From: Pseudoalteromonas translucida KMM 520
Lineage (GTDB): Bacteria > Pseudomonadota > Gammaproteobacteria > Enterobacterales > Alteromonadaceae
NCBI RefSeq assembly: GCF_001465295.1
Contig: NZ_CP011034.1
Span: 1,140,001 to 1,172,000 of the forward strand
Direction: 5' to 3'
Length of the DNA stretch: 32,000 bases
Of the stretch, positions 6,035 to 24,792 are shown one piece after another; position 1 is the stretch's first letter; each line of letters begins with the position of its first letter. The translations under genes and the position numbers were made by a program. Under the pieces are notes generated by a model. That model was not told where the DNA came from. It did no database searches and saw only the letters and a program-made list of their open reading frames with translations.

Positions 6035-7594
6035 ATGAGTACCACTGGAGTAACAAAACAACATGAAGATGAGCATTCATCTACAACAAAGTATTTGGCA
6101 GGGGTTGATATACCGGTATTTTTAATCAGTGGTGGCATTCTTGTGCTATTTGCTGTGCTAGCACTTTATGATATTGATTTGATGTCGGGTTGGATCAATA
6201 CCGCTTTTGCTTTTTCTACTAAAACGTTTGGTGCCTTTTGGCAAATATTATTGCTTTCGACCTTTATAATTGGGTTGTTTTTAGCCTTTGGACGTACTGG
6301 GAAAGTGGTATTAGGTGGCTTAAAAAAGCCAGAAATTACTACCTTTAAGTGGATCAGCATTATTATGTGTACACTCCTTGCTGGTGGCGGGGTGTTTTGG
6401 GCTGCTGCTGAGCCAATGGCACATTTTATTTCGCCGCCGCCAATTTTTGGTGGTGAGTCAGGCACTAAAGAGGCTGCATTTAATGCTTTAGCGCAAAGCT
6501 TTATGCATTGGGGATTTTTAGCCTGGGCTATTTTAGGCAGCCTGACTGGCATAGTGTATATGCATTTACATTACGAAAAAGGTTTACCACTTAAGCCGCG
6601 TACTTTGTTGTATCCGGTATTTGGCGATCGCGTAATGAAAGGCACATTTGGTGCTATTGTCGATTCGTGTTGTGTTATAGCTGTAGTAGCAGGCACGGTA
6701 GGCCCTATTGGCTTTTTAGGCTTGCAAGTAAGTTTTGGTTTAGAAAAACTATTTGGTATTCCAGATACTTATACCACTCAAGTGGCCATTTTATTTAGTT
6801 TAATTGCAATTTATACTCTATCTGCCGTAAGTGGTGTTACTAAAGGGATTCAATTACTCAGTCGCTTTAATGTAATTTTAGCCGTGGCGTTAATGCTGTT
6901 TATTTTGCTGATGGGGCCTACAGCCTTTATTTTTGATAGCTATATTCATTCGTTTGGGCTTTATATTAATAACTTTATTCCTATGGCCACTTTTCGTGCC
7001 GATACCGCTTGGTTAGACTGGTGGACAGTATTTTTTTGGGGCTGGTTTTTAGGTTATGGACCTTTAATGGCTATGTTTGTTGCACGAATTTCGCGCGGCC
7101 GTACTATTCGTGAAATGATCACGCTTATTTCAATAATTGCCCCTGTTATTACTTGTTTTTGGTTTACGATAGTAGGTGGTTCAGGAATATTTTTTGAGTT
7201 AGCAAACCCGGGTGTTATTTCAGAACCCTTTGCGGGCTTAAATTTACCTGCTGCACTGTTGGCCATTACTGAGCAGCTGCCTATGGGCTTTGTTATATCG
7301 GTATTGTTTTTAATTTTAACCACAATATTTGTAGCAACCACAGGTGACTCTATGACCTACTCGGTGTCTATGGTAATGACGGGTAACGATCATCCGCAAA
7401 CATCCATTAGAGTGTTTTGGGGCATTATGATGGGGGTTATGGCAGCAATATTAATTTCGATAGGTTCAGGTGGTATTTCTGCACTGCAGTCGTTTATTGT
7501 AGTAACTGCCGTACCTGTATCTTTTGTGTTGTTACCATCACTTTGGACGGCCCCACAAATTGCGAAAAAAATGGCTACTGAGCAAGGTTTATAA
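6035..7594 (+). CDS. BCCT-family (betaine/carnitine/choline-type) transporter, paralog 1
   Basis: 519 aa with about 12 TM segments. BCCT signature region WTVFFWGWFLGYGPLMAMFVARISRGRTIRE. SD aggag lies 7 nt upstream. Confidence 0.9.
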   Translation: MSTTGVTKQHEDEHSSTTKYLAGVDIPVFLISGGILVLFAVLALYDIDLMSGWINTAFAFSTKTFGAFWQILLLSTFIIGLFLAFGRTGKVVLGGLKKPEITTFKWISIIMCTLLAGGGVFWAAAEPMAHFISPPPIFGGESGTKEAAFNALAQSFMHWGFLAWAILGSLTGIVYMHLHYEKGLPLKPRTLLYPVFGDRVMKGTFGAIVDSCCVIAVVAGTVGPIGFLGLQVSFGLEKLFGIPDTYTTQVAILFSLIAIYTLSAVSGVTKGIQLLSRFNVILAVALMLFILLMGPTAFIFDSYIHSFGLYINNFIPMATFRADTAWLDWWTVFFWGWFLGYGPLMAMFVARISRGRTIREMITLISIIAPVITCFWFTIVGGSGIFFELANPGVISEPFAGLNLPAALLAITEQLPMGFVISVLFLILTTIFVATTGDSMTYSVSMVMTGNDHPQTSIRVFWGIMMGVMAAILISIGSGGISALQSFIVVTAVPVSFVLLPSLWTAPQIAKKMATEQGL

Positions 7595-7620: not shown

Positions 7621-7657
7621 GATTGATTGCCCAACGAGAGGCAATCAATCTTATTTA
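7621..7657. terminator. Bidirectional terminator between BCCT-1(+) and the 245-aa gene(-)
   Basis: 11-bp stem gattgattgcc/ggcaatcaatc with loop caacgaga, followed by T-rich sequence. Confidence 0.75.
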
Positions 7658-7661
7658 CAGG

Positions 7662-8399
7662 TTAGCGCCCCCCTGCATCGAGTCTAGAGCGATCGGTGTT
7701 TTCTACCAAGACTCCCGCACCGAGATAATTTATTTTTAGCCAAATATCTTCGTCAATTTCGATCCCATGATTAACTGAGTGATTTTTGTTTTTTTCAATT
7801 TTTTCAGCGCTAATCATATGACTGTCATCACTTTGAAGTGAAGTAGTTAAATCGACCCTTGAACTACAAATAATGGTTAACGCTTGCTTGTCATCATCAG
7901 TGGTTATTAAGTTGGTTACACCGCTGCTATAGCTAGGATAACGTCTACCCGAAAGAATAGCTGCAGTATGTTCGGTAATTATATCGCTGCCATTTTTCCA
8001 ATAAGCCGCAGTACTGATCCCTCTGCGACCTCGGTCGGTCAATGCTTTTAGTACAAACATTCTGTTATGACAGTTATGCACAGTTACGGTTGCAATACCT
8101 GTTTCGAGTGCTTTTGCATGGGCCAGATCTACTGCTGCAGCAATACAATTTAGTGCACTACGATTGTGCGCATCAATAATTGCAGAAGTGCTATCTTCAT
8201 AAATTACATTACTTAGCGGCTTGTCAGCATCATCACAAAGGTATGGCAGCGCCTGGCGTAATTCTTTTAAGCCATTTAAACCATGTTTTTCTAACCACAA
8301 CACCATGTTTGCAGCATCTTCATAGTTACCAACAAAATAGCCACTAGCTTCAAAACACCTACGTAGCGAGGCTTTAAGTTCATTCATAGAAATATTCAC
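7662..8399 (-). CDS. Conserved-looking hypothetical protein, 245 aa; N-terminus resembles the Ldh_2 (malate/L-lactate/DpkA-type dehydrogenase) fold pattern but is about 100 aa shorter
   Basis: GTG start with an AAGGAG SD 7 nt upstream; the SD overlaps the stop codon of the upstream 569-aa gene. The pattern ELKASLRRCFEASGxxxxxAxxxAxxLxxxxLxG...TVTVHNCHN recalls Ldh_2 N-termini. This is motif-level only and needs an HMM check. Confidence 0.6.
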   Translation of the reverse strand: MNISMNELKASLRRCFEASGYFVGNYEDAANMVLWLEKHGLNGLKELRQALPYLCDDADKPLSNVIYEDSTSAIIDAHNRSALNCIAAAVDLAHAKALETGIATVTVHNCHNRMFVLKALTDRGRRGISTAAYWKNGSDIITEHTAAILSGRRYPSYSSGVTNLITTDDDKQALTIICSSRVDLTTSLQSDDSHMISAEKIEKNKNHSVNHGIEIDEDIWLKINYLGAGVLVENTDRSRLDAGGR

Positions 8400-8410
8400 A
8401 AAGAATCTCC

Positions 8411-10120
8411 TTATTGTTTTGGTGTTAATGGCATAAACCAGTCATCAATAAATGGTTTACCAATGTCTTCAAGTAATGGTGCGCCTTGAAACATGGTATT
8501 TCTTACCCATAATCGAGATCGAGGATCAAATTTACTCACGCCAAAAAAAGCAAGTTTACAGCGCAGTAAATGTATAGGTAACACATCGCGATCGAGTAAG
8601 TTGGCCTGGATATCACCATATACACTGCGGTTCATGCTTTGAATACGCCTTACAATACCGCGTAACTTAGGGTGAGCTACCATAAAGCGCGCAGTAATGT
8701 GCTCCGGGTTGTTTACTATATATTCAACCAGCATGTTATAGCATTTGCGCACCGCGTAACCTACGGCAAGCGCCATCGCTTTCTTTTTACCTTCTACGTC
8801 GGCAATACTACCGAGGCGAGGTTCCATTTTCTCTTCTGAGCGATACCAATAAGTTTCTTTAGCGCCCTCAGCGTCAAAGTCTATAGCCAGCGCCCAATCA
8901 TAACGTTGTTCAATAACTGCTTTTAACTGCTGTAATGGCATAAGTGGATCTAAATCTAAAAACTCATCGGAACAGTGAAAGTCTTCAAGCTCATCAACTA
9001 AATCCGGATAAATTTCTAACATAATAGAAACTAACATTTCCTGACCTTGTAAAGAGCAGTGTTGTTCACTATAAGCAATTAACTCATCCCAACTATTAAA
9101 GCCGCCAGTAACCAGTGCTTTAAGTTTTTGCATGTCTTGGACGACAATTTTGTTTAGAGCTGTTTGCGATGCATCTTCAGTAATGGTTTCATGTGTGTAC
9201 TGAACGGCACGGGTTATTAACTCAACCGTTAATTGTTGAGTATAAGCAGTAATTGCACCCAGTGCTCTGATACGAGCTAGTGCGAGTTCTCGCATAGATA
9301 TCCACTGGTTTATGAGTAGTGGATGATTTACTAAATAGGGTGCCATGCCTAGCCCGGTAGAATTACCAATGCCAAAATAACGTTTAATATCATGGCGCAT
9401 AGGGGTAAATGTGGCAGCATTACGGTGGCGGGCAATATGCTCTACTTGCAGTAAACTAAAGTTACGTAGCATAAAACAAACAAACATCTCACTGGCAAAT
9501 GGGCGTGCAAAGTCAGGAAATTTTTGTTGAACTTTTTCCCAATCAGCCATACCCAATTTACCACTGCCATAAACAGCAGTAGTGCGATACAAATAGCCTA
9601 CTTCTGCTATTTTTGCTACTTCGGGTTGCTTACCGCTGGCTAGTTGCTCAACCACATAATCAAAGTTACGGGCACTGCGGTTAGCACGCGATAACACAAA
9701 AACCCGCGAGTCAACGCGTCCGGCTTCTTGTTTTGGTACATTTTGCTTTAACTGGACAACATATTCTGGGGTCACTTGGCCTTCAACTAACGCCATAGTT
9801 AAATCCCACTTTGTAGCAATTACGCGATCATTACGCTCTTCTGACAGTAGCTGTTCAGAAAAAAGTACAAAACTAAAGAATCCATCGGGTGCTTGTACTT
9901 CATAAACAACCGTACCAAATCCTTGTTCATTTAGATCTAAAGTGGCAAGTTCAATTTTCCAACGCTCGCGAAAAATTCGACGTACCAAAGTGCGCATAAA
10001 GCTTAGGCGGCTTTGATGTAAAGAGCCTAACCTTTCTAGTTTCATAACTTGACTGGCAGGGCGCAGTGGCAGTGCGTTGTCGCCCCAAAGTGAAGCGTGA
10101 ATATCGGCATGTTTAGTCAT
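8411..10120 (-). CDS. Hypothetical protein, 569 aa, no family recognised
   Basis: Long uninterrupted ORF with normal composition and no TM segments. Translationally coupled to the 245-aa gene downstream. Confidence 0.7.
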   Translation of the reverse strand: MTKHADIHASLWGDNALPLRPASQVMKLERLGSLHQSRLSFMRTLVRRIFRERWKIELATLDLNEQGFGTVVYEVQAPDGFFSFVLFSEQLLSEERNDRVIATKWDLTMALVEGQVTPEYVVQLKQNVPKQEAGRVDSRVFVLSRANRSARNFDYVVEQLASGKQPEVAKIAEVGYLYRTTAVYGSGKLGMADWEKVQQKFPDFARPFASEMFVCFMLRNFSLLQVEHIARHRNAATFTPMRHDIKRYFGIGNSTGLGMAPYLVNHPLLINQWISMRELALARIRALGAITAYTQQLTVELITRAVQYTHETITEDASQTALNKIVVQDMQKLKALVTGGFNSWDELIAYSEQHCSLQGQEMLVSIMLEIYPDLVDELEDFHCSDEFLDLDPLMPLQQLKAVIEQRYDWALAIDFDAEGAKETYWYRSEEKMEPRLGSIADVEGKKKAMALAVGYAVRKCYNMLVEYIVNNPEHITARFMVAHPKLRGIVRRIQSMNRSVYGDIQANLLDRDVLPIHLLRCKLAFFGVSKFDPRSRLWVRNTMFQGAPLLEDIGKPFIDDWFMPLTPKQ

Positions 10121-10306
10121 GTTAATGATCTCATATTATACCGTTTGAGTACGTTTGATTGATCACACGTTGCGCGTAACTGGGATTAAGTGTTAACCAA
10201 TTTAAATGGTATAAATAATGTGTACTCAAAGTGGTGCTATTTTACTGGTGGCGCCATTTTTGACCAATAGCTGGAATTAGCACAAGTCAAAAAAGTCTAT
10301 CTATCG

Positions 10307-10321
10307 ATAAGTAAAACTTAT
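10307..10321. promoter_or_regulatory. Putative LysR-type operator (ATAAG-N5-CTTAT, contains T-N11-A) upstream of the 569/245-aa operon
   Basis: The sequence ataagtaaaacttat is a perfect dyad, identical in both half-sites to the site at 11417. Confidence 0.5.
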
Positions 10322-10515
10322 TGTTGCGGACTGTTTTTTGATTCTATTGAAGTATTTATATATTAAAATTGTTTTAAATGTAACTTAATAACGTTAGTTA
10401 GCGTGTTTCTTGTTGTTTGTTTTGTTAAGTTGAATTTAGTGATCATCTAGTTAAAAAGTTAATCACTATCGCAAAGCATATTAGGTTTGTAACTCATTAT
10501 ACGTGCTCTGGGGCA

Positions 10516-11415
10516 CTATTGTTGCTCAGCCCCGTGCTTTAAAATAAAGTCAGTTAACGCTTGTGCCGCTGGGGCAAGTGACTTGTTTTTAAGTTGTACT
10601 ATGCCTATTTCGCGCACCACATGCGGGGTTTTTAATGGAATAAAACACAAGGTGTTGTTGTGTTGCGGAAAAGCAAAACGCGGTAATGTGGTTATACCCA
10701 TTCCAGTTTCTAGCATGGCTATAAGCGATAGCATATTTGAAATATAAAACTGCGAGTTTTCGAGTAGCGGCTCAGCAGCTGTTTTTTTAAGTAAGCGCGA
10801 AGTGCCATTACTTATAAATCGCTGTTGTTGTAGATCCTGCCAGTGTAGTTCTTGCACGTGTGTAAGAGGGTTATCTTTATGACAAACAACACCTATTTCA
10901 TCCTGCCATATAGGGGTAAACAGTACATTATCGTGTTCATGACCAGGTGTAAGACTGGCAATTCCTAAATCAACTTGTTGTTTTTCGACTTTTTTTAATA
11001 CTGTTTCAGAATTATCATCATAAAGACTAATGTGTAACTCAGGAAGATCTGCCACAAATTTAGATAATAAGTTAGGCAGTAATCTACAGCCGATGGAGGG
11101 CACAGATGCAAGGCGTAAATGGCCCGTTTTATTTTGGCGCATTAATACCATATCTTGAGAAATACTGTCGTGATGGGCAATCAGCTCTTTTGCTTTGGGC
11201 AAAAAGTTTCTACCAAATGGTGTAAGCTCAGTCATAGTACTTTTCGTACTTCGCTTTTCAAAAACATCGGCACCTAATTTATTTTCAAGGTCACGAATCG
11301 ATAAAGAGATTGCCGGCTGTGTACGACATGCCTTTTGCGCAGCGTAATGAAATCCTTTTAATTCAGCAACCCAGACGAAATGTCGTAGCTGGGTAATTTT
11401 AAATTCAGGTAGCAC
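10516..11415 (-). CDS. LysR-family transcriptional regulator of the locus
   Basis: 299 aa. N-terminal wHTH (FHYAAQKACRTQPAISLSIRDLENKLG) plus a LysR substrate-binding domain. GTG start with an AAGGA SD. Divergent from the ALDH operon. Confidence 0.9.
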   Translation of the reverse strand: MLPEFKITQLRHFVWVAELKGFHYAAQKACRTQPAISLSIRDLENKLGADVFEKRSTKSTMTELTPFGRNFLPKAKELIAHHDSISQDMVLMRQNKTGHLRLASVPSIGCRLLPNLLSKFVADLPELHISLYDDNSETVLKKVEKQQVDLGIASLTPGHEHDNVLFTPIWQDEIGVVCHKDNPLTHVQELHWQDLQQQRFISNGTSRLLKKTAAEPLLENSQFYISNMLSLIAMLETGMGITTLPRFAFPQHNNTLCFIPLKTPHVVREIGIVQLKNKSLAPAAQALTDFILKHGAEQQ

Positions 11416-11416
11416 G

Positions 11417-11431
11417 ATAAGTTTTCCTTAT
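11417..11431. promoter_or_regulatory. Putative LysR-type operator (ATAAG-N5-CTTAT) in the lysR/ALDH divergent region
   Basis: The sequence ataagttttccttat is a perfect dyad with T-N11-A. It starts 2 nt upstream of the lysR start codon, the position expected for autoregulation. Confidence 0.55.
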
Positions 11432-11508
11432 CAAAATATATTAATTATTAATTTTAGTTATTAGAGCATGGTTCTTATACTGAATCCAATTATTTAATGG
11501 AGGTATTT

Positions 11509-12954
11509 ATGTCATCAAATTCAGTGTTTCAAAATTACATCGCAGGTCAGTGGGTTGAAGGTAAAAGTTCAATTGAGAATATTAGCCCAGCAGACTTAAG
11601 CGATACGATAGGACATTACGCCCAAGCAGATAAAGCACAAACAGAAGCAGCAATTGATGCTGCGATTGTAGGTCAACTCGAATGGCAAAAAAGTGGTCTT
11701 GAAGAGCGCTATCGCGTTTTAATGGCCATTGGTGATGAGTTAATTGCCCGTAAAGATGAGCTTGGCAAACTACTAGCACGTGAAGAAGGCAAAACATTAG
11801 CAGAAGGCGTGGGCGAAACTTATCGTTCAGGTCAATTTTTTCATTACTACGCTGCAGAAGTGTTACGCCAAATGGGCGAAACGGCCGATTCAGTACGTCC
11901 AGGAGTTGAAATTGAAACCCGCAGAGAACCTGTTGGTGTTGTGGGTATTATTACTCCATGGAATTTTCCTACGGCTACTGGCGCATGGAAAATTGCTCCG
12001 GCACTGGCCTTTGGTAATGCCATTGTATTTAAACCCGCTAACCAAGTACCAGCAAGTGCATGGGCATTAACCGAAATCATCTCACGTCAAGGTTTACCAG
12101 CAGGTACGTTTAACTTAGTTATGGGGCCTGGCGCTGAAGTAGGTGATTTACTTATTAATTCTAAAAAAATTAATGCGTTAACATTTACAGGTTCACTGGA
12201 AACAGGCCGTAAAGTGGCTATAGCTACAGCAACAAACCTAGTTAAATGTCAGCTTGAAATGGGCAGTAAAAATGCCTTAATCGTACTAGACGATGCCGAT
12301 TTAGATAATGCAGTGGAATGCGCTGTGGGTGGTGCATTTTTTGGTACTGGTCAAAAATGTACTGCATCATCGCGCTTAATTGTTACCGAAGGTATCCATG
12401 ACCGTTTTGTTGCTGCTGTAATTAAAAGAATGGAACAGCTAGTAGTGGGTCACCCACTTAGAGATGGTGTGCATATTGGTGCTGTCGCCGATGCACGTCA
12501 AATGGCACAAAACTTAAAGTATCTACAAATAGCTAAAGACGAAGGCGCTACGCTTGCCATCGGTGGTGAAGTGATCACTGAGGAAACCGAAGGTTATTAC
12601 TTAAAGCCTGCTCTGTTTATTAATACTACTAACGATATGACCATTAACCGTGAAGAAGCGTTTGCGCCAATTGCTTGTGTTATCAAAGTTAAAGATTATG
12701 AAACAGCCTTAGCCACATTAAACGATACAAACTATGGTCTTACAGGCGGAATTTGTACGCAATCACTTAAATATGCGAGTGACTTTAAACGCCGCGCACA
12801 AACAGGCTGTGTCATGGTTAACTTGCCAACAGCGGGTACTGACTACCATGTACCATTTGGTGGTCGTAAAGAGTCTAGCTTTGGTGCACGTGAGCAAGGT
12901 ACTTACGCGAAAGAGTTTTACACCATAGTTAAAACAACTTACATCCGCTCATAA
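11509..12954 (+). CDS. NAD(P)-dependent aldehyde dehydrogenase (2,5-dioxovalerate/ketoglutarate-semialdehyde dehydrogenase-like)
   Basis: 481 aa from the ATG at 11509, which is preceded by ggagg. Catalytic Glu context LEMGSKNA and Cys context GQKCTASSR. Cofactor motif ITPWNFP. Confidence 0.9.
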   Translation: MSSNSVFQNYIAGQWVEGKSSIENISPADLSDTIGHYAQADKAQTEAAIDAAIVGQLEWQKSGLEERYRVLMAIGDELIARKDELGKLLAREEGKTLAEGVGETYRSGQFFHYYAAEVLRQMGETADSVRPGVEIETRREPVGVVGIITPWNFPTATGAWKIAPALAFGNAIVFKPANQVPASAWALTEIISRQGLPAGTFNLVMGPGAEVGDLLINSKKINALTFTGSLETGRKVAIATATNLVKCQLEMGSKNALIVLDDADLDNAVECAVGGAFFGTGQKCTASSRLIVTEGIHDRFVAAVIKRMEQLVVGHPLRDGVHIGAVADARQMAQNLKYLQIAKDEGATLAIGGEVITEETEGYYLKPALFINTTNDMTINREEAFAPIACVIKVKDYETALATLNDTNYGLTGGICTQSLKYASDFKRRAQTGCVMVNLPTAGTDYHVPFGGRKESSFGAREQGTYAKEFYTIVKTTYIRS

Positions 12955-12968
12955 TCTAAGGAATCATT

Positions 12969-13961
12969 ATGCATAACGATCTAATTGTCATTGATGGATT
13001 GCAGTATTCCAATTGGAATAGAACTATTTTTGAACAACTTAAAAGTGGTGGCGTAACAATGGTGCATGTGACCATTGTTTACCACGAACAAATTCGTGAA
13101 ACATTATTACGTATCGCACAGTGGAATCGCCTGTTCGAGATGCATAATGATCTGATTATGCCAGTAAAAAGTACAGATGATATTCACCTTGCCAAAAAGT
13201 TAGGCAAAGTGGGGATTATGTTTGGTGCACAAAACTGTTCAACCATTGAAGATGACATTGGTATGGTGGAAATCATGCGCGAGTTAAATTTAATGATTAT
13301 GCAGCTCACTTATAACAACCAAAGCTTGTTAGCTTGTGGTTGTTATGAGGCTGAAGATAGCGGTGTTACCCGTTTTGGCCGCCAAGTTATTAAAGAAATG
13401 AACCGCGTAGGCATGATTGTTGATATGAGCCATAGTGGTGAGCGAAGCACGCTGGAAGCAATTGAAATATCGCAGCGTCCTATCGTCATTTCGCATGCTA
13501 ATCCAAGTAGTTTTCATGCCGCTAAACGTAATAAATCAGACACTGTACTAAAAGCGCTTGGTGAGTCGGGCGGTTTATTAGGGTTTAGTTTATATCCATT
13601 TCATCTTAAAAATGGCCCCGATTGCACTTTAAACGAATTTTGCGACATGGTGGCAAATACGGCCGATTTAATGGGTATAGATAATATTGGTATTGGTACC
13701 GATTTATGCCAAGAGCAGCCAACCTCAATTTTACAGTGGATGCGAAACGGACGTTGGTCTAAAGAAATGGATTATGGCGAAGGCTCTAAGTCGGATGCAG
13801 ATTGGCCCAAACCGTTACCTTGGTTTAAAGATAGTAGCGATTTTCCCAATATTACAAAAGGGCTTCAGGCACGAGGTTTTCATGATAATGAAGTTGCAAA
13901 AATAATGGGCTTAAATTGGCTTAATCTTTTAAATAAAGGCCTGAAACCACAAGACGTATAA
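12969..13961 (+). CDS. Peptidase M19 (renal/membrane dipeptidase) family homolog, non-canonical
   Basis: 330 aa. Family motifs DMSHSGERS, PIVISHANPSS and GIGTDL are present. The N-terminal DGHxD metal-ligand motif is replaced by VIDGLQYSN, and LTHxxxN is replaced by LTYNNQS. Confidence 0.8.
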   Translation: MHNDLIVIDGLQYSNWNRTIFEQLKSGGVTMVHVTIVYHEQIRETLLRIAQWNRLFEMHNDLIMPVKSTDDIHLAKKLGKVGIMFGAQNCSTIEDDIGMVEIMRELNLMIMQLTYNNQSLLACGCYEAEDSGVTRFGRQVIKEMNRVGMIVDMSHSGERSTLEAIEISQRPIVISHANPSSFHAAKRNKSDTVLKALGESGGLLGFSLYPFHLKNGPDCTLNEFCDMVANTADLMGIDNIGIGTDLCQEQPTSILQWMRNGRWSKEMDYGEGSKSDADWPKPLPWFKDSSDFPNITKGLQARGFHDNEVAKIMGLNWLNLLNKGLKPQDV

Positions 13962-14048: not shown

Positions 14049-15608
14049 ATGAATACCACCAGTACAACGATAAAACAGGATATGGGTACATTACCCTGCA
14101 ATAAAATTCTGCCTGGGGTAGATATAGCGGTACTATTGATCAGTGGGGGAGTACTCGTGTTGTTTGCTGCACTAGCGCTTTACGATATTGACTTGATGTC
14201 GAGTTGGATCAATTCCGCCTTTGCATTTTCTACTAAAACTTTTGGCGCATTTTGGCAAATACTACTGCTTTCGACTTTTGTTATCGGTATATTTTTAGCG
14301 ATCGGTCGCACGGGTAGGGTTGTTTTAGGTGGGTTAAAGTCTCCTGAAATTTCGACGTTTAAATGGATCAGCATCATTATGTGTACGCTGCTTGCTGGTG
14401 GAGGCGTATTTTGGGCTGCCGCTGAGCCAATGGCGCACTTTATTTCATCGCCGCCGCATTTTGGTGGCGAGTCGGGCACTAAAAACGCGGCTTTTAATGC
14501 ATTAGCACAAAGCTTTATGCATTGGGGGTTTTTAGCCTGGGCTATTTTAGGCAGCCTAACTGGCATAGTGTACATGCATTTACATTACGAAAAAGGCTTA
14601 CCGCTTAAACCACGTACTTTACTTTACCCTGTGTTTGGCGACCGTGTAATGAAAGGCGCTTTTGGTGCTATTGTTGACTCATGTTGTGTACTTGCGGTTG
14701 TTGCCGGTACTGTAGGACCAATTGGCTTTTTAGGACTACAAGTGAGCTTTGGTTTAGAAAAACTATTTGGCATTCCCGATACCTATACAACTCAAGTGGT
14801 TATTTTATTTAGCTTAATTGCTATTTACACGCTATCGGCAGTCAGTGGTGTGACCAAAGGGATTCAGATGCTAAGTAGCTTTAATGTTATTTTAGCGGTA
14901 GCGCTAATGTTATTTATTTTAGTAATGGGGCCAACGGCATTTATTTTCGACAGCTATATTCAATCATTTGGTCTTTATATTAATAACTTTATTCCTATGG
15001 CGACCTTTCGCGCCGATACCGCCTGGTTGGATTGGTGGACGGTATTTTTTTGGGGCTGGTTTTTAGGCTATGGTCCATTAATGGCGATGTTTGTTGCACG
15101 TATTTCACGCGGTCGCACTATTCGTGAAATGATCATGCTGATCTCTGTAATTGCCCCTGTTATCACCTGTTTTTGGTTTACGATAGTAGGTGGTTCAGGA
15201 ATATTTTTCGAGCTGGCTAATCCCGGTGTCATTTCAGAACCTTTTACTGGTTTTAACTTACCTGCAGCGCTATTAGCCATTACTGAGCAGCTGCCTATGG
15301 GTTTTGTTATCTCAGTATTATTTTTAATATTAACCACTATTTTTGTGGCAACCACTGGTGATTCGATGACCTATTCAGTCTCTATGGTAATGACTGGAAC
15401 TGATCACCCGCAAACATCAATCAGGGTGTTTTGGGGAGTTATGATGGGGGTTATGGCTGCTATTTTAATCTCTATTGGCTCTGGAGGTATTTCTGCTTTG
15501 CAATCGTTTATTGTAGTAACCGCAGTGCCAGTGTCTTTTGTACTGTTACCTTCGCTTTGGACCGCGCCGAAAATAGCTAAAAAAATGGCTGATGAGCAAG
15601 GTTTGTAA
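14049..15608 (+). CDS. BCCT-family transporter, paralog 2
   Basis: 519 aa. My manual comparison finds about 30 substitutions against paralog 1 after the first 22 residues or so. Both share the same SD context, atccatcaggagacga. Confidence 0.9.
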   Translation: MNTTSTTIKQDMGTLPCNKILPGVDIAVLLISGGVLVLFAALALYDIDLMSSWINSAFAFSTKTFGAFWQILLLSTFVIGIFLAIGRTGRVVLGGLKSPEISTFKWISIIMCTLLAGGGVFWAAAEPMAHFISSPPHFGGESGTKNAAFNALAQSFMHWGFLAWAILGSLTGIVYMHLHYEKGLPLKPRTLLYPVFGDRVMKGAFGAIVDSCCVLAVVAGTVGPIGFLGLQVSFGLEKLFGIPDTYTTQVVILFSLIAIYTLSAVSGVTKGIQMLSSFNVILAVALMLFILVMGPTAFIFDSYIQSFGLYINNFIPMATFRADTAWLDWWTVFFWGWFLGYGPLMAMFVARISRGRTIREMIMLISVIAPVITCFWFTIVGGSGIFFELANPGVISEPFTGFNLPAALLAITEQLPMGFVISVLFLILTTIFVATTGDSMTYSVSMVMTGTDHPQTSIRVFWGVMMGVMAAILISIGSGGISALQSFIVVTAVPVSFVLLPSLWTAPKIAKKMADEQGL

Positions 15609-15655: not shown

Positions 15656-15758
15656 ACTGCATTTTAATAGAATTAATTTTAAAGTCCCAAATTTTTCCAA
15701 CAGTTTGGGCAAAACAACCAACCATAATGTTACTTATCCAATTAGAGCTGAAACTAAA

Positions 15759-16133
15759 ATGAAAACACCTGTTAAAACTAATTTATTCGCATCTAAAGCC
15801 CCATTAGAATGGGCAATTATTGCCAATGGCACATTATCAACTGCACAAATACCAATTGATGCAGAAGGCAAAGTTGTTGCCGGTGGTATTGAAGCACAAG
15901 CGCGTCAAACAATGGAGAACTTTAAGCACACAATTGAAGCAGCTTCGCTTACTATGGATGATGTAACGCAAGTCCTTATTTACGTGACCGAACGTTCGCA
16001 GTTGGCCACTTTTAATAAAGTGTACGCAGAGTATTTTAAGCCACCTTATCCAAATCGTGCTGCTATGATAGTAGCAGGCTTAGCCCGAGAAGAGATGCTG
16101 TGTGAAGTAGTGGCTTACGCTGCAGTACCTTAA
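15759..16133 (+). CDS. RidA/YjgF/UK114-family (reactive enamine/imine deaminase-like) protein
   Basis: 124 aa from the ATG at 15759; the track TTG at 15705 is less likely. RidA-like core IEAQARQTMENFKHTIEAA and C-terminal PNRAAMIVAGLAREEMLCEV. Confidence 0.8.
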   Translation: MKTPVKTNLFASKAPLEWAIIANGTLSTAQIPIDAEGKVVAGGIEAQARQTMENFKHTIEAASLTMDDVTQVLIYVTERSQLATFNKVYAEYFKPPYPNRAAMIVAGLAREEMLCEVVAYAAVP

Positions 16134-18292: not shown

Positions 18293-18551
18293 AAGTGGAT
18301 GAATTATCTTAAATATTTAATGTCGAGTCTAATTAGGAGTTTTTATCTTTTAATAATAATTACTAGTGGCTGAAGTTGTTATTAGTTATACCCATATAAT
18401 TCAATTTATTTAAGTTCCCTTTATATTCAGCCACTTAAGTTAACTGATTTCACACCCAGAGTAAGTCTTCTTATGATCACCCTGCATAAAATAATAAATA
18501 TTTAACAACCAACGGTAAATATCGTTATTACCAAGTAAGAAAGCGATATGT

Positions 18552-18836
18552 ATGCATTTAAATAACTTAGCCGCTAAATACATTATTGGCGATATTACCG
18601 TATCAGCTTCACGTTACTATTTAACTGCCATGGTAGGCGAGAATAAAGTAGATGCAGTACAGGTAGCTTATAATCGCGACCATCTAAGCTTGGCAGCTCG
18701 CTTACAAAGCTCTAACGATATGCGTTTTTACCAAGGACTAAAACCCAGCGGTGAAATAGTTAAAGAAAAATGTGGGAAATATATTCAGGCTATAAAATTT
18801 ACAATATTCAACTACAAGCCACTTATGCCAATGTAG
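18552..18836 (+). CDS. Hypothetical protein, 94 aa
   Basis: ORF only, with a weak SD. No family recognised. Confidence 0.4.
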   Translation: MHLNNLAAKYIIGDITVSASRYYLTAMVGENKVDAVQVAYNRDHLSLAARLQSSNDMRFYQGLKPSGEIVKEKCGKYIQAIKFTIFNYKPLMPM

Positions 18837-18837
18837 C

Positions 18838-19011
18838 ATGGACTCTGTAAGTGGTTTAACCGTAGACACCAGCCAAGTGATGCTTGATGCAATATATAAT
18901 CATAAAGCGGGGAGCTTTTACGTAGAGTACAGTATGTGGGTCGATGAAGCCGAGCAAATATTTGAAGCTGCTGATGAGTTGTTGATTAGCTATCGATTCG
19001 ATTTTTGCTGA
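18838..19011 (+). CDS. Possible 57-aa acidic protein, start 1 nt after the preceding stop
   Basis: Sequence MDSVSGLTVDTSQVMLDAIYNHKAGSFYVEYSMWVDEAEQIFEAADELLISYRFDFC. The TAG-c-ATG junction suggests coupling, and there is no SD of its own. It ends just before a strong terminator. Confidence 0.3.
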   Translation: MDSVSGLTVDTSQVMLDAIYNHKAGSFYVEYSMWVDEAEQIFEAADELLISYRFDFC

Positions 19012-19016
19012 TGCAT

Positions 19017-19051
19017 AAAAAAGGGCGCCAATATTATTGGCGCCCTTTTTT
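19017..19051. terminator. Strong bidirectional rho-independent terminator
   Basis: 10-bp GC-rich stem gggcgccaat/attggcgccc with loop att. An A-run lies on the left and a T-run on the right. It serves the convergent units on both sides. Confidence 0.9.
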
Positions 19052-19055
19052 GTTA

Positions 19056-19166
19056 TTACTTAGATTTTCTCTTTCTTGGTTTTGCAACTTCGACAGTATT
19101 TGATTCTTTCAGTTTACGTTTTTCTTTTAACGATAAAGCGGGTTTTTTCTTATCATTTTTAGACAT
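19056..19166 (-). CDS. Highly basic micro-protein, 36 aa (copy A): MSKNDKKKPALSLKEKRKLKESNTVEVAKPRKRKSK
   Basis: Not in the ORF track because it is under 60 aa. SD aggtggtga lies upstream of the ATG and a terminator follows immediately. A paralog 394 nt upstream differs mostly by synonymous changes and one in-frame codon indel. Confidence 0.65.
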   Translation of the reverse strand: MSKNDKKKPALSLKEKRKLKESNTVEVAKPRKRKSK

Positions 19167-19300
19167 ATTCACCACCTAAACAATAAATAATAGATTAATA
19201 TAAAATACTTTTTTACCAACTAAAACCCTATCAACAATCAAGGTAAGTTACCTCCTTACTTTGTCGAAAATAAACGTTAGTTACTTATAAATTATTCGCA

Positions 19301-19388
19301 TTAAAAGTGAAGCGGGGGTTAGTTTCCTTCTACCGATAAGCCGACTGATCCAAGTTCGGCATAATCGTAAATAACCACCGCAGCTCAC
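19301..19388 (-). terminator. Long structured element ending in a U-run (probable terminator of micro-protein gene B)
   Basis: On the minus strand the outer stem is gtgagc.gcgg / cccgc.ttcac, followed by ttttaa. An inner 5-bp hairpin pairs gccga with tcggc (19340-19360). Confidence 0.45.
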
Positions 19389-19449
19389 TTTATTTACCTA
19401 ATTAAAGGCATAGCTAATAACTTTAAAACCCAGCGTTATTCAAAGTAGC

Positions 19450-19563
19450 TTAAGCCTTTCTCTTTTTCCTTGGTTTTGCCACTTCGGTTGTATTCGATTC
19501 TTGTTTTAACTTACGTTTTTCTTTTAACGATAACTGTGGTTTTTTCATATCATTTTTAGACAT
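19450..19563 (-). CDS. Highly basic micro-protein, 37 aa (copy B): MSKNDMKKPQLSLKEKRKLKQESNTTEVAKPRKKRKA
   Basis: SD aggtga upstream. Paralog of copy A, with a conserved leader of about 100 nt. Confidence 0.65.
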   Translation of the reverse strand: MSKNDMKKPQLSLKEKRKLKQESNTTEVAKPRKKRKA

Positions 19564-19920
19564 ATCATCACCTATTAATAAATAACAAATTAATTACTTC
19601 TGCTTTTAGTAAACTAAAAATTAAAGAAACAATATCAATCGGCTATTCACCTCCTTTAATAAGATTAAATAATTACTGCTCTTCGTTTATATTGCTTAAA
19701 ACTAAACGAAGAAACTTTATGCTTTTACTGTATTTAATAACCAAATTTGCCACGCGCTATACAAGAGCGCATAAATAATATTGATAATAAAAACACAGTA
19801 ATATTTAAATTTCACTTTAATCTAGGCGATAGAAAGCTTGCCGAGAATGGCCTAAATTAAAGTTAAATTAAAAATTTATAGTAAATTCTGTGAAACAGAT
19901 GGACGCAGAGAAGCGTCCGC

Positions 19921-19992
19921 TTAAGCGGGGAATTTTAGGGCGAAGCTCCCCAAACAAATAATATAATTAAATAAAAAAATATATGTTTTCAT
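19921..19992 (-). CDS. Possible 23-aa hydrophobic micro-ORF: MKTYIFLFNYIICLGSFALKFPA
   Basis: ATG preceded by ggag, but the spacing is very short. The stop is followed directly by the hairpin ggacgc/gcgtcc (19901-19918). Speculative. Confidence 0.2.
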   Translation of the reverse strand: MKTYIFLFNYIICLGSFALKFPA

Positions 19993-20300
19993 AGCTCCAA
20001 TATAGCAGCTTAAATAATAACTACAAGCTATCTTAGATGCTTTAATTAAAGATTAAATTTATGGGTAAAATAGACATGAACTTATTAAAAAGCAATCCAT
20101 TTTTTAAGCGTATAACTTATGCGGCTCTCAAGTAAGCAAAGAAAATAGATGGCAAAAGATTTATTATTTTAACCAACTCCCTACCTCAAGTTAATGGAGT
20201 TAACGTCGTACTGTACTTATTAACACCAACACGACCAAATTAAAGGCTTAATCTTGCAATGCTCGCCATTAATAGCTGCAAGTATAAATAGCAATTAGTT

Positions 20301-20327
20301 ATAAAAATCCCATATAGCATATGGGAT
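20301..20327 (-). terminator. Rho-independent terminator for the 20440-20934 gene
   Basis: 9-bp stem atcccatat/atatgggat with a 3-nt loop, followed on the minus strand by ttttat. Confidence 0.7.
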
Positions 20328-20439
20328 TAATATAGTGTGTTTTTAAACGCTAGCTATAATATGCGACATTTTTTGTAACAAGAGTTAAAAACAGGTTTAA
20401 ATATTTACACCTGCTAGGCTAAAGTAAATAAAGTTATTT

Positions 20440-20934
20440 TTATTTGAAACTTCTAGTTTGAGCACCCCATGCAAAAACTAATGCGTAAAGTATATGGCCA
20501 ATGAGTGCAACCCAAGTGGTTTCGGTGAAGCCGATAAACGGCGGCAGACCAATAATTAAATGCGCCACAACGTAGAGTGCGAATACCCAAAGTACAATAC
20601 CGTACACTACAGCTGTAATACTCCAGTGAAGCGAGGGCATGATTGCTTTGCGCATTGGTAGTACTACAAATAACCAGCCTAATGGGTAAAGTATTAAGCC
20701 TGTAATATAGTGAATCAATTCGGGAGTTCCTGTAGGTACTGTACCGAATATAACCTCAATCATAGTTCTGGGGAGCTTAATTGTTGATAGCTCAGCAAAA
20801 CCTAGAAGAGGAGACAGCGATGGCCCCCAAAAATCAAAGATAACCGTAGCGAGTGCGCCTGCAAATAGCATTATTAAAATAGACGAAAACATATTCGCCG
20901 AGAGACGTTCACTTTCATTATCGTGATTAGTCAT
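20440..20934 (-). CDS. Small integral membrane protein, 164 aa, family not recognised
   Basis: Four to five hydrophobic helices. SD aagga lies upstream of the ATG. Confidence 0.7.
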   Translation of the reverse strand: MTNHDNESERLSANMFSSILIMLFAGALATVIFDFWGPSLSPLLGFAELSTIKLPRTMIEVIFGTVPTGTPELIHYITGLILYPLGWLFVVLPMRKAIMPSLHWSITAVVYGIVLWVFALYVVAHLIIGLPPFIGFTETTWVALIGHILYALVFAWGAQTRSFK

Positions 20935-21123
20935 AGTTTTTTCCTTGTCGAGAGCAAGCTGATAGTTCCTTAAATGGCTTGTCTCAGTAAGCGTTCAAAA
21001 GATTATAAAGCCCCGTGGCATGTAGTACTAGCTGAGGACTGAGGTAGGCTGTCGCGTTTGACCTTTAATAACGGCACAAGCGACATTTAATAAAAGATTA
21101 ACGTGGCTGATAGTATACCGCTG

Positions 21124-21153
21124 TTTATAGTTTGTAAATGTCTTTTATATCAA
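21124..21153 (-). promoter_or_regulatory. Putative sigma70 promoter (TTGATA-18 nt-TATAAA) for the 20440-20934 gene
   Basis: Both hexamers read on the minus strand. This promoter would give a leader of about 180 nt. Confidence 0.35.
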
Positions 21154-21685
21154 GTATAGCAAGGCTTACAGCAGGTTACGTATACAATTTATAAATATTT
21201 AATTATAGTTAAACTGTAATTATTTAATTTGTTAAAATGATGTTGTCGGGAGTTGGTAACAATATCAATCTTATTAAAAATATGATCATTGTAGCTTATT
21301 AAATAGCTTACCTATTATTTTAGGTAATAATATAAAATGAAGCTTAAAGCAGACGCTGAAAATGAATTTTTAGTAGCAAATTAAATGGCTAATTTAACTT
21401 TTTAATCTCTGCGAGTTTAATTCCTCGTCGCTTGCGGCGTAAAGGTTATTGACCTTTAACAGCTAATTAAAATATCCTTCTTTGCGAAGCGAAAATTTTG
21501 GCACGGGGTAATTCATTCCTCACTTTCATTCATTTTATTGAATATAAGTATAGAGTGAGGGCTTATACATTTTTACTGTGTAAATTTTTATTATTTAAAA
21601 ATGATTACGTAGCAATACTTTAAGTTATTTGTTAAAACTATTAAATTATTATTCTAGGTTTAAATGTGAGTATAAGGAGTATTTT

Positions 21686-21856
21686 ATGTCGAAAAAAGTA
21701 GTAACTTTTGAATACGAAAAAGAAACAAAAAACAGTGTTCGTTACAAAGAAGTGCCTGATGAAGGCGTTGCCCCTATTGTAGGATCTTTGTATGTTCAGA
21801 AGTGGTTTGCTGGGAATAGCAAAACGATTGAAATAACGATAGATAAAAAAGACTAA
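21686..21856 (+). CDS. Small hypothetical protein, 56 aa: MSKKVVTFEYEKETKNSVRYKEVPDEGVAPIVGSLYVQKWFAGNSKTIEITIDKKD
   Basis: Strong SD aaggag 6 nt upstream of the ATG at 21686; the track TTG start at 21629 is unlikely. The sequence looks beta-rich. Confidence 0.6.
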   Translation: MSKKVVTFEYEKETKNSVRYKEVPDEGVAPIVGSLYVQKWFAGNSKTIEITIDKKD

Positions 21857-22058
21857 TTAGCGGCATTATTTTTGCGCCATAGTTTTTGTTTAGGTAAAAA
21901 CGACTAGTAAATAGTGCGTTTTATTTAAGAGCGCATAATATATTTTTAAACTAATAAAGTTTTTTATAGCGTATTATAGTAGCTCATTTATTATTTATAT
22001 TAGGCTTAAGTAAAAGTACGCTAGCCTCACAAATTTTACTAACAAGGAAGTTGTATAG

Positions 22059-22502
22059 ATGAAGTATTTTATTTTAATCTCTATTTTAATTATTAGTGGG
22101 TGTACATCAACACCTAAAGTTATATCTAACTCGGATATAACCAGCACTATGAATTTAATTGCCCTCACAGAAGAAGCTGCTCCTGCAGGAATAAAAGGCG
22201 TATTTAAGTTATCAATAAAGGCGGCAGGCATTCAAAACAGTGGTATTTATTTAAATACAGAATTGGATTATAGAGATAGAAGAAATGTGAGTGTCGCTAT
22301 TCACCCTAGAACAGTAAATGCTTTTATAAAAAAGTATGGAACTTCGCCCGATTTATATTTTATTAATAAAACTATTGAAGTTACGGGCGAGGCTAAACGT
22401 ATGATAATTGATTTTTACGCTATGGGTAAAAAAACAGAAAAGTACTATTTTCAAACACATATAAATATAACATCACTCGATCAGATAAAAGTATTGGACT
22501 AG
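22059..22502 (+). CDS. Lipoprotein, 147 aa, function unknown
   Basis: Signal peptide with lipobox ISGC (MKYFILISILIISGC). SD aaggaag upstream. Confidence 0.7.
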   Translation: MKYFILISILIISGCTSTPKVISNSDITSTMNLIALTEEAAPAGIKGVFKLSIKAAGIQNSGIYLNTELDYRDRRNVSVAIHPRTVNAFIKKYGTSPDLYFINKTIEVTGEAKRMIIDFYAMGKKTEKYYFQTHINITSLDQIKVLD

Positions 22503-22528
22503 GTGAGTTATTAAATAAACTATAATTT

Positions 22529-22554
22529 GTCGGGTGGCGCTGCGTTTATCCGAC
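22529..22554. repeat. REP-like extragenic palindrome
   Basis: Sequence gtcgggtggcgctgcgtttatccgac. Its reverse complement, gtcggataaacgcagcgccacccgac, has the CGGATAA...CCG.C architecture of enterobacterial REP units. Only one copy is in this window. Confidence 0.5.
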
Positions 22555-22876
22555 TTTAGCTTGTACCCTGTTTTTATTTTAATATCGCTAATATTGGCTT
22601 TTCAAGCCGTAATTTAGCAACTAATTTTACGCTATATTCCTGCAATTCTTAATAAAAAAAGTTGTAATAAAAGCCACACATTAAGCGCAATTTAGATTCT
22701 TCCTTTATATTTCCTGCCTCTGAGGCGCTATGATATTTAGCGTTACTTTGTTTCTAATTTTTAACATTAAAATTTACTCGTTACGAGTAAAAATTCTTGT
22801 TGGACTTAAACCGCTATTTTTCTTTTAATGCGCGCAATTAGCCAGTTCGGCATTTCTAAATAAAAGAGAAAGATAA

Positions 22877-24790: not shown

Positions 24791-24792
24791 GT

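Follow-up and report, generated by a model that had tools for sequence, protein, structure and literature searches.

Among small nitrogen metabolites of the surface ocean, homarine (N-methylpicolinate) is one of the most abundant. An operon for its catabolism, homABCDER (plus homT), has been described by Ferrer-Gonzalez et al. (Nat Microbiol 2026; PMC13236597), with loci at SPO3188-SPO3192 in R. pomeroyi and ACFLL8_11490-11520 in Cobetia sp. OBi1, and is the bacterial route from homarine to glutamate, including in SAR11 and Roseobacters. Besides a regulator and a 'glycine betaine transporter', the operon comprises five catabolic genes, among them those for the peptidase HomC and the aldehyde dehydrogenase (ALDH) HomD (SPO3191) (PMC13236597). 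Growth on homarine is lost when homB, homC, homD or homR is knocked out (homA was not among the knockouts); dependence on the genes or their induction was shown in two organisms, one gammaproteobacterium (Cobetia) and one alphaproteobacterium (R. pomeroyi), and a Vibrio isolate carrying the operon also grows on homarine (PMC13236597). Homarine is converted to N-methylglutamate with the N-methyl group intact and the product fully labelled from homarine, and features with the formulas C7H9NO5, C6H9NO4 and C6H9NO3 are seen en route (PMC13236597). Of 11,755 genomes, 97.7% have homA next to homB, while homE is found in 93% of Gammaproteobacteria and missing from 94% of Alphaproteobacteria (PMC13236597). 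A HomA-HomB heterodimer was predicted with AlphaFold for the orthologues, HomA was said to have 'conserved motifs for a FAD binding domain', and an analogy with TgnA/TgnB was drawn (PMC13236597). SPO3188 is annotated as 'hypothetical protein'.

In Acinetobacter baylyi the trigonelline ring is opened by TgnAB, a two-component flavin-dependent oxygenase. Like the homarine system, TgnAB acts on an N-methylpyridinium carboxylate, and its reaction is followed by dehydrogenase and hydrolase steps; the likeness probably extends to reduction plus O2, cleavage next to the nitrogen and an N-formyl-N-methyl enamine of formula C7H9NO4. However, the two systems have no sequence or fold relationship. The Ldh_2 family (PF02615), which bears on the small subunit below, includes type-2 malate/lactate dehydrogenases, the ureidoglycolate dehydrogenase AllD, YiaK/DlgD, the sulfolactate dehydrogenase ComC and the imine reductase DpkA, and DpkA-type enzymes also act as N-methyl-amino-acid dehydrogenases. 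An M19-type 'dipeptidase' inside a catabolic operon for an N-methylated betaine derivative is also seen in the dgc operon of P. aeruginosa (PA5396 (putative dipeptidase)-PA5397-dgcA-dgcB; PMC13492115). In that operon DgcA and DgcB are the catalytic partners, in place of a HomB-type protein. PA5397 may be a DUF3726 protein.

The window analysed here is a 32,000-nucleotide stretch of the Pseudoalteromonas translucida KMM 520 genome (NZ_CP011034.1, positions 1,140,001 to 1,172,000). It carries a pair of minus-strand genes encoding a large and a small protein (Table 1). At their junction the minus strand reads ...CAA TAA GGAG ATTCTTT GTG: the TAA of the large gene occupies 8413-8411, the AAGGAG of the small gene (8412-8407) shares the last two bases of that stop, and the GTG start (8399-8397) follows 11 nt after the stop, with a Shine-Dalgarno-to-start spacing of 7 nt. 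The open reading frames, the overlap and the 11-nt distance are exactly as the first-pass annotation had read them. The GTG start is supported by M1, S4 and E7 of the small protein, which are conserved across homologues. Homologous junctions in other genomes mostly have a 4-nt overlap.

Table 1. Features of the putative homarine utilisation island (window coordinates).
Feature	Position	Strand	Basis or context
Second BCCT transporter	6035..7594	+	convergent with the small gene
Terminator-like hairpin, 12-bp stem	7621..7650	-	3' of the small gene, before the convergent BCCT gene
Small subunit, HomA-type, 245 aa, DUF3726	7662..8399	-	ORF, GTG start
Coupling junction	8400..8413	-	read directly from the sequence
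Large subunit, HomB-type, 569 aa	8411..10120	-	ORF, ATG start
ATAAGTAAAACTTAT dyad, T-N11-A LysR-type box (predicted)	10307..10321	.	395-nt region upstream of the large gene
LysR-family regulator (homR-type)	10516..11415	-	Pfam HTH_1 + LysR_substrate
ATAAGTTTTCCTTAT dyad	11417..11431	.	divergent regulator/ALDH promoter region
Aldehyde dehydrogenase (homD-type)	11497..12954	+	Pfam Aldedh, 1e-152
M19 'membrane dipeptidase' family hydrolase (homC-type)	12969..13961	+	Pfam Peptidase_M19, 2.6e-81
BCCT transporter (homT-type)	14049..15608	+	Pfam BCCT, 5.5e-154
RidA / L-PSP family protein, candidate homE	15705..16133	+	ORF; Pfam Ribonuc_L-PSP, 2.9e-21

The module around the pair has the same gene set as the hom operon: a LysR regulator, an ALDH, an M19 'peptidase', a BCCT transporter, an auxiliary small gene (RidA) and the adjacent large and small genes. 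The operon definition of PMC13236597 asks for homA, homB, homC (peptidase) and homD (ALDH) within 10 kb; in the window all four types lie within 7662-13961, about 6.3 kb, and a homR-type LysR gene, a homT-type BCCT gene and a RidA gene as candidate homE are also present, in line with the homR, homT and auxiliary homE of Cobetia-type operons. The closest NCBIfam models to the ALDH are those of alpha-ketoglutaric semialdehyde dehydrogenase and betaine-aldehyde dehydrogenase, each below its cut-off. RidA is probably HomE, since its phyletic pattern matches that published for homE (all modules seen in Gammaproteobacteria or Betaproteobacteria include RidA), and its true start is probably an internal ATG near 15756. 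The window differs from the hom operon in its duplicated BCCT transporter, the two copies being 91% identical. It differs also in that homB-homA form their own transcription unit behind homR, with an operator-like box of their own.

Gene order also agrees with the Roseobacter relatives. With the Phaeobacter protein as seed, a genome scan gave 50 Roseobacter loci, one of them in Ruegeria atlantica, and Phaeobacter and R. atlantica have the order LysR-ALDH-M19-large-small, as from SPO3192 to SPO3188. The large protein of the window is about 40% identical, over 96% of its length, to the Phaeobacter protein of this syntenic five-gene cluster. Judged by synteny, gene composition and this level of identity to Roseobacter proteins, together with a phyletic pattern in which the auxiliary gene is mostly absent from Alphaproteobacteria, the island is very probably a hom operon. 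The pair itself is very probably HomB/HomA, and probably the subunits of the enzyme that starts homarine catabolism, within a complete hom-type module. Pathways for ectoine, carnitine, DMSP, proline-betaine and dimethylglycine, considered on account of the BCCT, LysR and ALDH genes, were dropped because the hom gene set matched fully; no literature linking a BCCT transporter, a membrane dipeptidase and an ALDH was found. The first-pass annotation had held that confident matches to characterised families would refute its reading of the pair. This came true in part, because the pair belongs to the genetically characterised hom system. The pair is thus already known genetically from the hom operon paper, and the fold results and LysR boxes reported below are new. 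For annotation, the names HomB-like and HomA-like can replace 'hypothetical' for PTRA_a1231 and its neighbour, and the 6.0-16.1 kb island can be named a homarine utilisation locus.

The seven-gene module spans Alphaproteobacteria, Betaproteobacteria and Gammaproteobacteria. It was found on a Pseudomonas plasmid and in Alcaligenes, Reinekea, Psychrobacter and Cardiobacteriaceae, as well as in about 50 Roseobacter genomes. A LysR gene adjoins it in all clades. A tblastn search of the small subunit against plasmids, aimed at DgcAB-type partners of DUF3726 but insensitive, gave only five matches.

Across 57 loci examined, the small gene lies directly downstream of the large gene on the same strand in 52; of the remaining five, one is a true fusion and in four the contig runs out within 700 bp. 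Stop and start codons overlap or nearly overlap throughout. In Cardiobacteriaceae the two are one protein (a homB-homA fusion of 805 aa). Long forms make up 49 of the 150 top cluster representatives of the family, with a HomA-like domain detectable in 28 of these, and DUF3726 is present in all 14 fusion members of alignment A1. HomA-type proteins have no free-standing case, and are always paired or fused with a large subunit. The proposal that the genes form a coupled pair encoding a two-subunit enzyme is borne out by this adjacency and these fusions, along with the near-overlapping codons and the heterodimer prediction published for the orthologues; that the two genes are partners of one enzyme is supported.

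The large protein has more than 8000 homologues, with at least 70% identity across orders, and its family forms 1313 cluster representatives at 50% identity. Motifs invariant in the family are RNDRVIA, GYxxRTTAVYGxGKxG, GxGNxTGLGMAP, WYxSxxKxEPRxG and KFDPRS. HomB proteins of different clades are about 40% identical and share about 110 invariant columns, and the invariant residues include one His and zero Cys, with no cofactor site assignable from sequence. The 569-aa protein has no sequence match in Pfam, NCBIfam or PDB, and searches of PDB sequences with two profiles (A1, A2) and with both single proteins gave no match. An AF2 model of the large subunit (pLDDT 87.9, pTM 0.89) found no structural relative with Foldseek in PDB or BFVD (best PDB E 0.47, TM <=0.1). 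Kinase-like Foldseek matches were scattered (E >1, TM <0.1) and are regarded as noise. Likewise, a weak match to PPDK_N/PEP-synthase (ATP-grasp) is taken to be due to chance, because it was found in only 1 of 75 family members. The statement that no family can be recognised in the pair stands for the large protein, which has no recognisable motif either, but not for the small one, as described below. The long protein is identified as HomB because, in the hom operon paper, homB HMM matches reach E = 3.9e-240 and those of homA only 9.5e-57 (PMC13236597). Its conservation suggests that it is the probable catalytic subunit.

The 245-aa protein matches DUF3726 (PF12525) with 84.4 bits against a gathering threshold of 22.1 (E 5e-24, residues 4-80); no literature naming DUF3726 was found. 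Its residues 3-115 align to positions 1-117 of the 333 of the Ldh_2 profile (E = 1.7e-8), although the score of 34.4 bits is under the Pfam cut-off of 38.8, and no PDB sequence match was found, profile search included. The Ldh_2 likeness suggested in the first-pass annotation is upheld by structure: the C-terminal domain of a natural fusion homologue, on which the fold was judged in place of the window protein, has 27 Foldseek matches, all of them Ldh_2 structures (E 3.8e-6 to 1.7e-3; TM by target 0.44-0.55), including delta1-piperideine-2-carboxylate reductase 1wtj. The small subunit is however 245 aa long versus about 335-360 aa in Ldh_2 enzymes. The idea of a truncation by accident is not upheld, since 239-252 aa is the normal length in 120 homologues. 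No flavin-reductase or FAD-binding family was found in the small proteins of the window, Phaeobacter, Ruegeria or Psychrobacter with Pfam/NCBIfam at E up to 1. The small subunit is therefore a DUF3726 protein with a predicted truncated Ldh_2 dehydrogenase fold and not a recognisable flavin protein, in contrast to the FAD-binding signature given in the hom operon paper.

HomA is much less conserved than HomB, with just 23-27% identity between clades. H39-G40 and N109-C110-H111-N112-R113 are near-invariant in the clade of the window, but both motifs are replaced or deleted in Roseobacter HomA, which speaks against HomA having a conserved active site for hydride transfer. The motif TVTVHNCHN, earlier equated with the V.V.NS.H of Ldh_2 proteins and a candidate for a catalytic His, fares poorly on two counts: the register is off by one, so that the H falls on N112, and the motif is absent in the Roseobacter orthologues, the clade of an experimentally tested organism.

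A reaction scheme can be read from the molecular formulas alone. HomB/HomA would add a net 2 H and O2 to homarine (C7H7NO2) and break its C5-C6 bond, which opens the ring and yields an N-formyl-N-methyl enamine aldehyde (C7H9NO4); the stoichiometry is that of TgnAB on trigonelline. HomD would then oxidise the aldehyde to C7H9NO5, and HomC, a relative of renal dehydropeptidase, would strip the N-formyl group to give C6H9NO4; HomC acting ahead of HomD would give C6H9NO3. The resulting N-methyl enamine/imine of 2-oxoglutarate would then either undergo reduction to N-methylglutamate or be hydrolysed with RidA assisting. The highly conserved HomB would be the catalytic subunit, while HomA, with its truncated Ldh_2 (NAD(P)H-dehydrogenase/imine-reductase) fold, may either supply the NAD+-like pyridinium ring with a hydride from NAD(P)H or have a structural role. 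We lean towards ring opening by HomB/HomA. Direct transfer of the NAD(P)H hydride followed by O2 cleavage without flavin is put forward tentatively, as a doubtful option. More speculative is a general picture in which HomB-type proteins would be a new enzyme fold opening N-methylpyridinium rings without flavin or known metal, the truncated Ldh_2 partner giving the hydride and O2 cleaving the dihydropyridine, and the large/small/M19 trio being a reusable cassette adapted elsewhere, for example on S. meliloti pSymB. As HomB is without a structural relative and HomA resembles a cut-down NAD(P)H dehydrogenase, biochemistry of the pair could reveal new ring-opening chemistry.

Other divisions of labour within the pair have to be weighed against ring opening by both subunits. 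HomB may open the ring alone. HomA would then act later as a DpkA-like imine reductase, making N-methyl-L-glutamate from 2-(methylimino)glutarate, and its tethering to HomB would serve channelling. An imine/enamine reduction step is needed, as N-methylglutamate is the demonstrated product, and the operon has no other reductase; the Ldh_2 fold, the match to 1wtj and the double role of DpkA-type enzymes would suit such a step. However, HomA lacks about 100 aa relative to Ldh_2 enzymes and matches the start of the profile only, its candidate catalytic motifs vary between clades and are lost in Roseobacters, and an active site shared with HomB accounts better than separate steps for the obligatory fusion or adjacency, so that this reading is considered unlikely. 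A TgnAB-like two-component flavin-dependent oxygenase, with HomA as FAD reductase supplying reduced flavin and HomB as oxygenase, is the view of PMC13236597, where the FAD-binding motifs and the Tgn analogy are given, and the 2 H + O2 inferred from the formulas is what TgnAB needs on the isomer trigonelline. The small proteins nevertheless match DUF3726 or Ldh_2 and no flavin family, the small domain of the fused homologue resembles Ldh_2 NAD(P)H enzymes exclusively and no flavin reductase, and the large subunit has neither a flavin-monooxygenase fold nor any other known one; we regard this reading as quite unlikely.

The substrate may also be questioned, in that the module of the window could be a hom-like paralogue for another N-methylated betaine or pyridinium, for example trigonelline or another BCCT substrate. 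The Vibrio/Psychrobacter and Roseobacter clades are each only 40-44% identical to the clade of the window. Sequence divergence between the two gammaproteobacterial clades is about 58% and both occur in Zobellella maritima, so substrate specificity could differ between clades, and in a divergent S. meliloti clade the large, small and M19 genes are retained but transporter, regulator and downstream enzyme are swapped. Against this, gene content in the window is identical to that of the seven-gene Cobetia operon, the two validated organisms span the divergence of the family and both use homarine, as does the Vibrio isolate with the operon (PMC13236597), which makes a paralogue of other specificity very unlikely. 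A defence or toxin system, or unrelated hypothetical genes adjacent by chance, is effectively refuted: stray UniRef names on two homologues ('ZorC EH domain' and 'restriction endonuclease') point that way, but neither protein matches in PADLOC, the catabolic neighbourhood is invariant across classes and the genes are fused in many genomes.

The dyad ATAAG-N5-CTTAT has two matches in the window versus 0.04 expected, one in front of the large gene and one between the regulator and ALDH genes (Table 1). An equivalent site is conserved in Reinekea, and the dyad is also found in Pseudomonas MPC6 and Alcaligenes with at most one mismatch. Both hom promoters carry a conserved, predicted LysR box, and the dyads support co-regulation of the module.

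The 569-aa and 245-aa genes of the window are a HomB-type and a HomA-type gene, respectively. They almost certainly belong to the homarine operon, which was described in 2026 from Cobetia sp. OBi1 as a gene cluster that homarine induces (Ferrer-Gonzalez et al., Nat Microbiol 2026, PMC13236597), and thus the system is already known genetically. It comprises homA, homB, homC (peptidase), homD (aldehyde dehydrogenase, SPO3191), homE (auxiliary), homR and homT; mutants in homB, homC, homD and homR do not grow on homarine, homA lies next to homB in 97.7% of 11,755 genomes, and a HomA/HomB heterodimer has been predicted with AlphaFold (PMC13236597). HMM matches reach E = 3.9e-240 for homB and only 9.5e-57 for homA (PMC13236597), and as the former value is impossible with 245 aa, homB encodes the long protein. 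From SPO3192 to SPO3188 the genes run R, D, C, B, A, an order shared by LysR-ALDH-M19-large-small on Phaeobacter plasmids and in Ruegeria atlantica, and SPO3188 is annotated as 'hypothetical protein'; together these points give the assignment of the two names. homE is found in 93% of Gammaproteobacteria and missing from 94% of Alphaproteobacteria (PMC13236597), a phyletic pattern matched by that of RidA, from which we infer that RidA is probably homE.

Features of the hom region in the window
Feature	Position	Strand	Remark
BCCT transporter	6035-7594	+	
Terminator-like hairpin	7650-7621	-	12-bp stem, 3' of small gene
Small gene (HomA-type)	7662-8399	-	245 aa, GTG start
Large gene (HomB-type)	8411-10120	-	569 aa, ATG start
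ATAAG-N5-CTTAT dyad	10307-10321		395-nt region upstream of large gene
LysR	10516-11415	-	
ATAAG-N5-CTTAT dyad	11417-11431		divergent LysR/ALDH promoter region
ALDH	11497-12954	+	
M19 'membrane dipeptidase'	12969-13961	+	
BCCT transporter	14049-15608	+	
RidA	15705-16133	+	

Both reading frames of the first-pass annotation are present as described, and its proposal that they encode a two-subunit enzyme, one subunit being a repurposed Ldh_2 domain, was essentially right. The coupled layout was confirmed by reading the minus-strand junction directly (CAA TAA GGAG ATTCTTT GTG): AAGGAG overlaps the stop codon of the large gene, the gap is 11 nt, and the spacing from Shine-Dalgarno to start is 7 nt. 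The hairpin check that found the terminator-like structure 3' of the small gene found none between the two genes.

The large protein (PTRA_a1231 of Pseudoalteromonas translucida KMM 520, 100% identity) had been described as lacking a recognisable family, and this holds: no Pfam, NCBIfam or PDB-sequence match was found with either the single sequence or a 75-member family profile. A PPDK_N match (E = 0.066) is due to chance, being present in one of the 75 members. The same description fails for the small protein, which is a DUF3726 protein (PF12525, 84.4 bits). Its residues 3-115 align with positions 1-117 of the 333 in the Ldh_2 profile, scoring 34.4 bits, under the 38.8 cut-off. It had been suggested to be a truncated or repurposed domain; it is indeed short, but it is a stable short family rather than a broken gene, since all of its 120 nearest homologues measure 239-252 aa. 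Between clades the small subunit shows little conservation (23-27% identity), and in the Roseobacter forms about 35 residues are missing, as is the NCHNR motif. Across the large-subunit family about 110 columns are invariant, with many Arg, Asp, Asn, Trp and Tyr residues, and these point to no cofactor. They include one invariant His and no invariant Cys, which speaks against both Fe-S clusters and a classic metal centre. The large subunit is probably the main seat of catalysis.

An AlphaFold2 model of the window's large protein, built from a 75-sequence alignment, scored pLDDT 87.9 and pTM 0.89, its single disordered stretch being the invariant glycine-rich loop G185-S-G-K-L-G190. Foldseek found no match for it in the PDB (best E = 0.47, TM <= 0.1) or BFVD. 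A Cardiobacteriaceae genome carries the module with the large and small genes as a single 805-aa ORF, and the AlphaFold2 model of this natural fusion (pLDDT 86.2, pTM 0.68) gave 27 significant Foldseek matches (E 3.8e-6 to 1.7e-3). All 27 are Ldh_2 enzymes (type-2 malate DH, DpkA, AllD, YiaK, ComC), aligned on the C-terminal, small-subunit-like domain. The predicted structure thus supports an Ldh_2 fold for this domain, as had been supposed from sequence patterns.

Searched exhaustively, 1.84 billion cluster representatives yielded 1313 relatives (E up to 1e-3). Among the best 150 of these, 49 are at least 690 aa long with an N-terminal large-subunit region, and in 28 of the 49 the small-subunit HMM matches the stretch directly after it; fused forms carry a DUF3726 or Ldh_2 segment according to Pfam. 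The large-subunit family is also found in Caballeronia, Sporosarcina (Firmicutes), Ilumatobacter, soil actinobacterial MAGs and a Natrinema versiforme plasmid (33% identity). This reach into Firmicutes, Actinobacteria and a haloarchaeal plasmid is wider than the mainly proteobacterial spread stressed in PMC13236597.

The same module occurs on an Antarctic Pseudomonas conjugative plasmid, in Alcaligenes faecalis and Reinekea forsetii, and in Psychrobacter, whose clade is only about 41% identical to the window's large protein. HMMs made from our own alignments were run over all 57 loci with a large gene, covering three proteobacterial classes. The small gene lies directly downstream on the same strand in 52 of these, the other five being one fusion and four loci whose contig stops within 700 bp, although the loci are not independent samples, as they were picked via the large protein and 50 came from one Roseobacter-seeded scan. 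The junction elsewhere is mostly a 4-nt overlap.

The dyad ATAAG-N5-CTTAT (a T-N11-A LysR box) has exactly two copies in 32 kb, versus 0.04 expected. Reinekea has exactly two copies in equivalent places (locus L003, 8583-8597 and 9661-9675), and in Pseudomonas MPC6 and Alcaligenes both places hold versions that differ by no more than one mismatch; the Psychrobacter and fusion clades lack them. The conserved sites in both promoter regions suggest that a single regulator drives both transcription units.

The labelled features C7H9NO5, C6H9NO4 and C6H9NO3, with N-methylglutamate as the fully labelled product (PMC13236597), are consistent with a simple reaction grid. The ring of homarine (C7H7NO2) would be cleaved at the C5-C6 bond, gaining 2 H and O2 overall, to give an N-formyl-N-methyl enamine aldehyde (C7H9NO4), which the ALDH would turn into C7H9NO5. 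Formate would be taken off by the M19 enzyme, which shares its family with renal dehydropeptidase, leaving C6H9NO4, or C6H9NO3 where M19 precedes the ALDH. The resulting N-methyl enamine/imine of 2-oxoglutarate would be reduced to N-methylglutamate, with RidA at hand to hydrolyse any that escapes.

TgnAB, which opens the trigonelline ring, has a stoichiometry equal to that of the proposed first step, and a flavin-dependent version of this step would follow that precedent. The TgnAB proteins are unrelated to HomB and HomA, and the small subunit is a member of an NAD(P)H-dependent family in which imine reductases are found. For these reasons the tentatively favoured route is that hydride passes directly to the NAD+-like pyridinium ring and that O2 cleavage then takes place on the large subunit, and a flavin-dependent step appears improbable; the 'FAD-binding motif' stated for HomA in PMC13236597 was not reproduced with Pfam or NCBIfam. 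The same family membership would suit HomA as a later imine reductase, which is considered unlikely. What stays of interest is how HomB/HomA fold and react, together with the divergent clades in which the large, small and M19 trio is put to use again.

One such clade (about 29% identical) is seen on S. meliloti 2011 pSymB (L008, 7139-16854), where M19 and the large gene with its small partner (251 aa) are kept, and LysR, BCCT and ALDH give way to an IclR regulator, an ABC transporter (SBP_bac_8) and a class-III aminotransferase; its substrate is probably different. Zobellella maritima seems to have members of both gammaproteobacterial clades (P0227, P0502), and may thus hold two paralogous hom-like clusters relevant to substrate specificity. 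PA5397 is presumably a DUF3726 protein; if so, DUF3726 and M19 pairs would be tied more generally to N-methyl catabolism. The dimethylglycine demethylase genes of the P. aeruginosa dgc operon are likewise accompanied by an M19 'dipeptidase', together with a small uncharacterised protein (PMC13492115).

On Pseudomonas sp. MPC6 plasmid pMPC6-328K, which is conjugative, the module lies beside an IS6 transposase, near a second BCCT accompanied by two mandelate-racemase-family enzymes, and near a Rieske oxygenase accompanied by an ALDH; the region looks like a mobile betaine-catabolism island. On Phaeobacter inhibens DSM 17395 plasmid pPGA1_262 (L007, 3062-15304) the cluster adjoins DMSP demethylation genes (annotated DMSP demethylase, AMP-binding protein, dmdD, acyl-CoA dehydrogenase), together an algal-osmolyte catabolic island.

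In the window, the two BCCTs flanking the hom genes are 91% identical across all 519 residues and look like a recent duplication; redundant homarine transporters are noted in PMC13236597. Further downstream, 18300-22870 is an ORF-poor, AT-rich stretch of about 4.5 kb (28-34% GC versus about 40% for flanking genes) with only short ORFs (94, 164, 75, 78 and 147 aa); Rfam gives no family there at the gathering threshold, and tandem repeats are absent. It is followed at 22877-25716 by near-abutting tandem genes for arginine decarboxylase (637 aa) and agmatinase (307 aa), a commonplace pair for putrescine biosynthesis.
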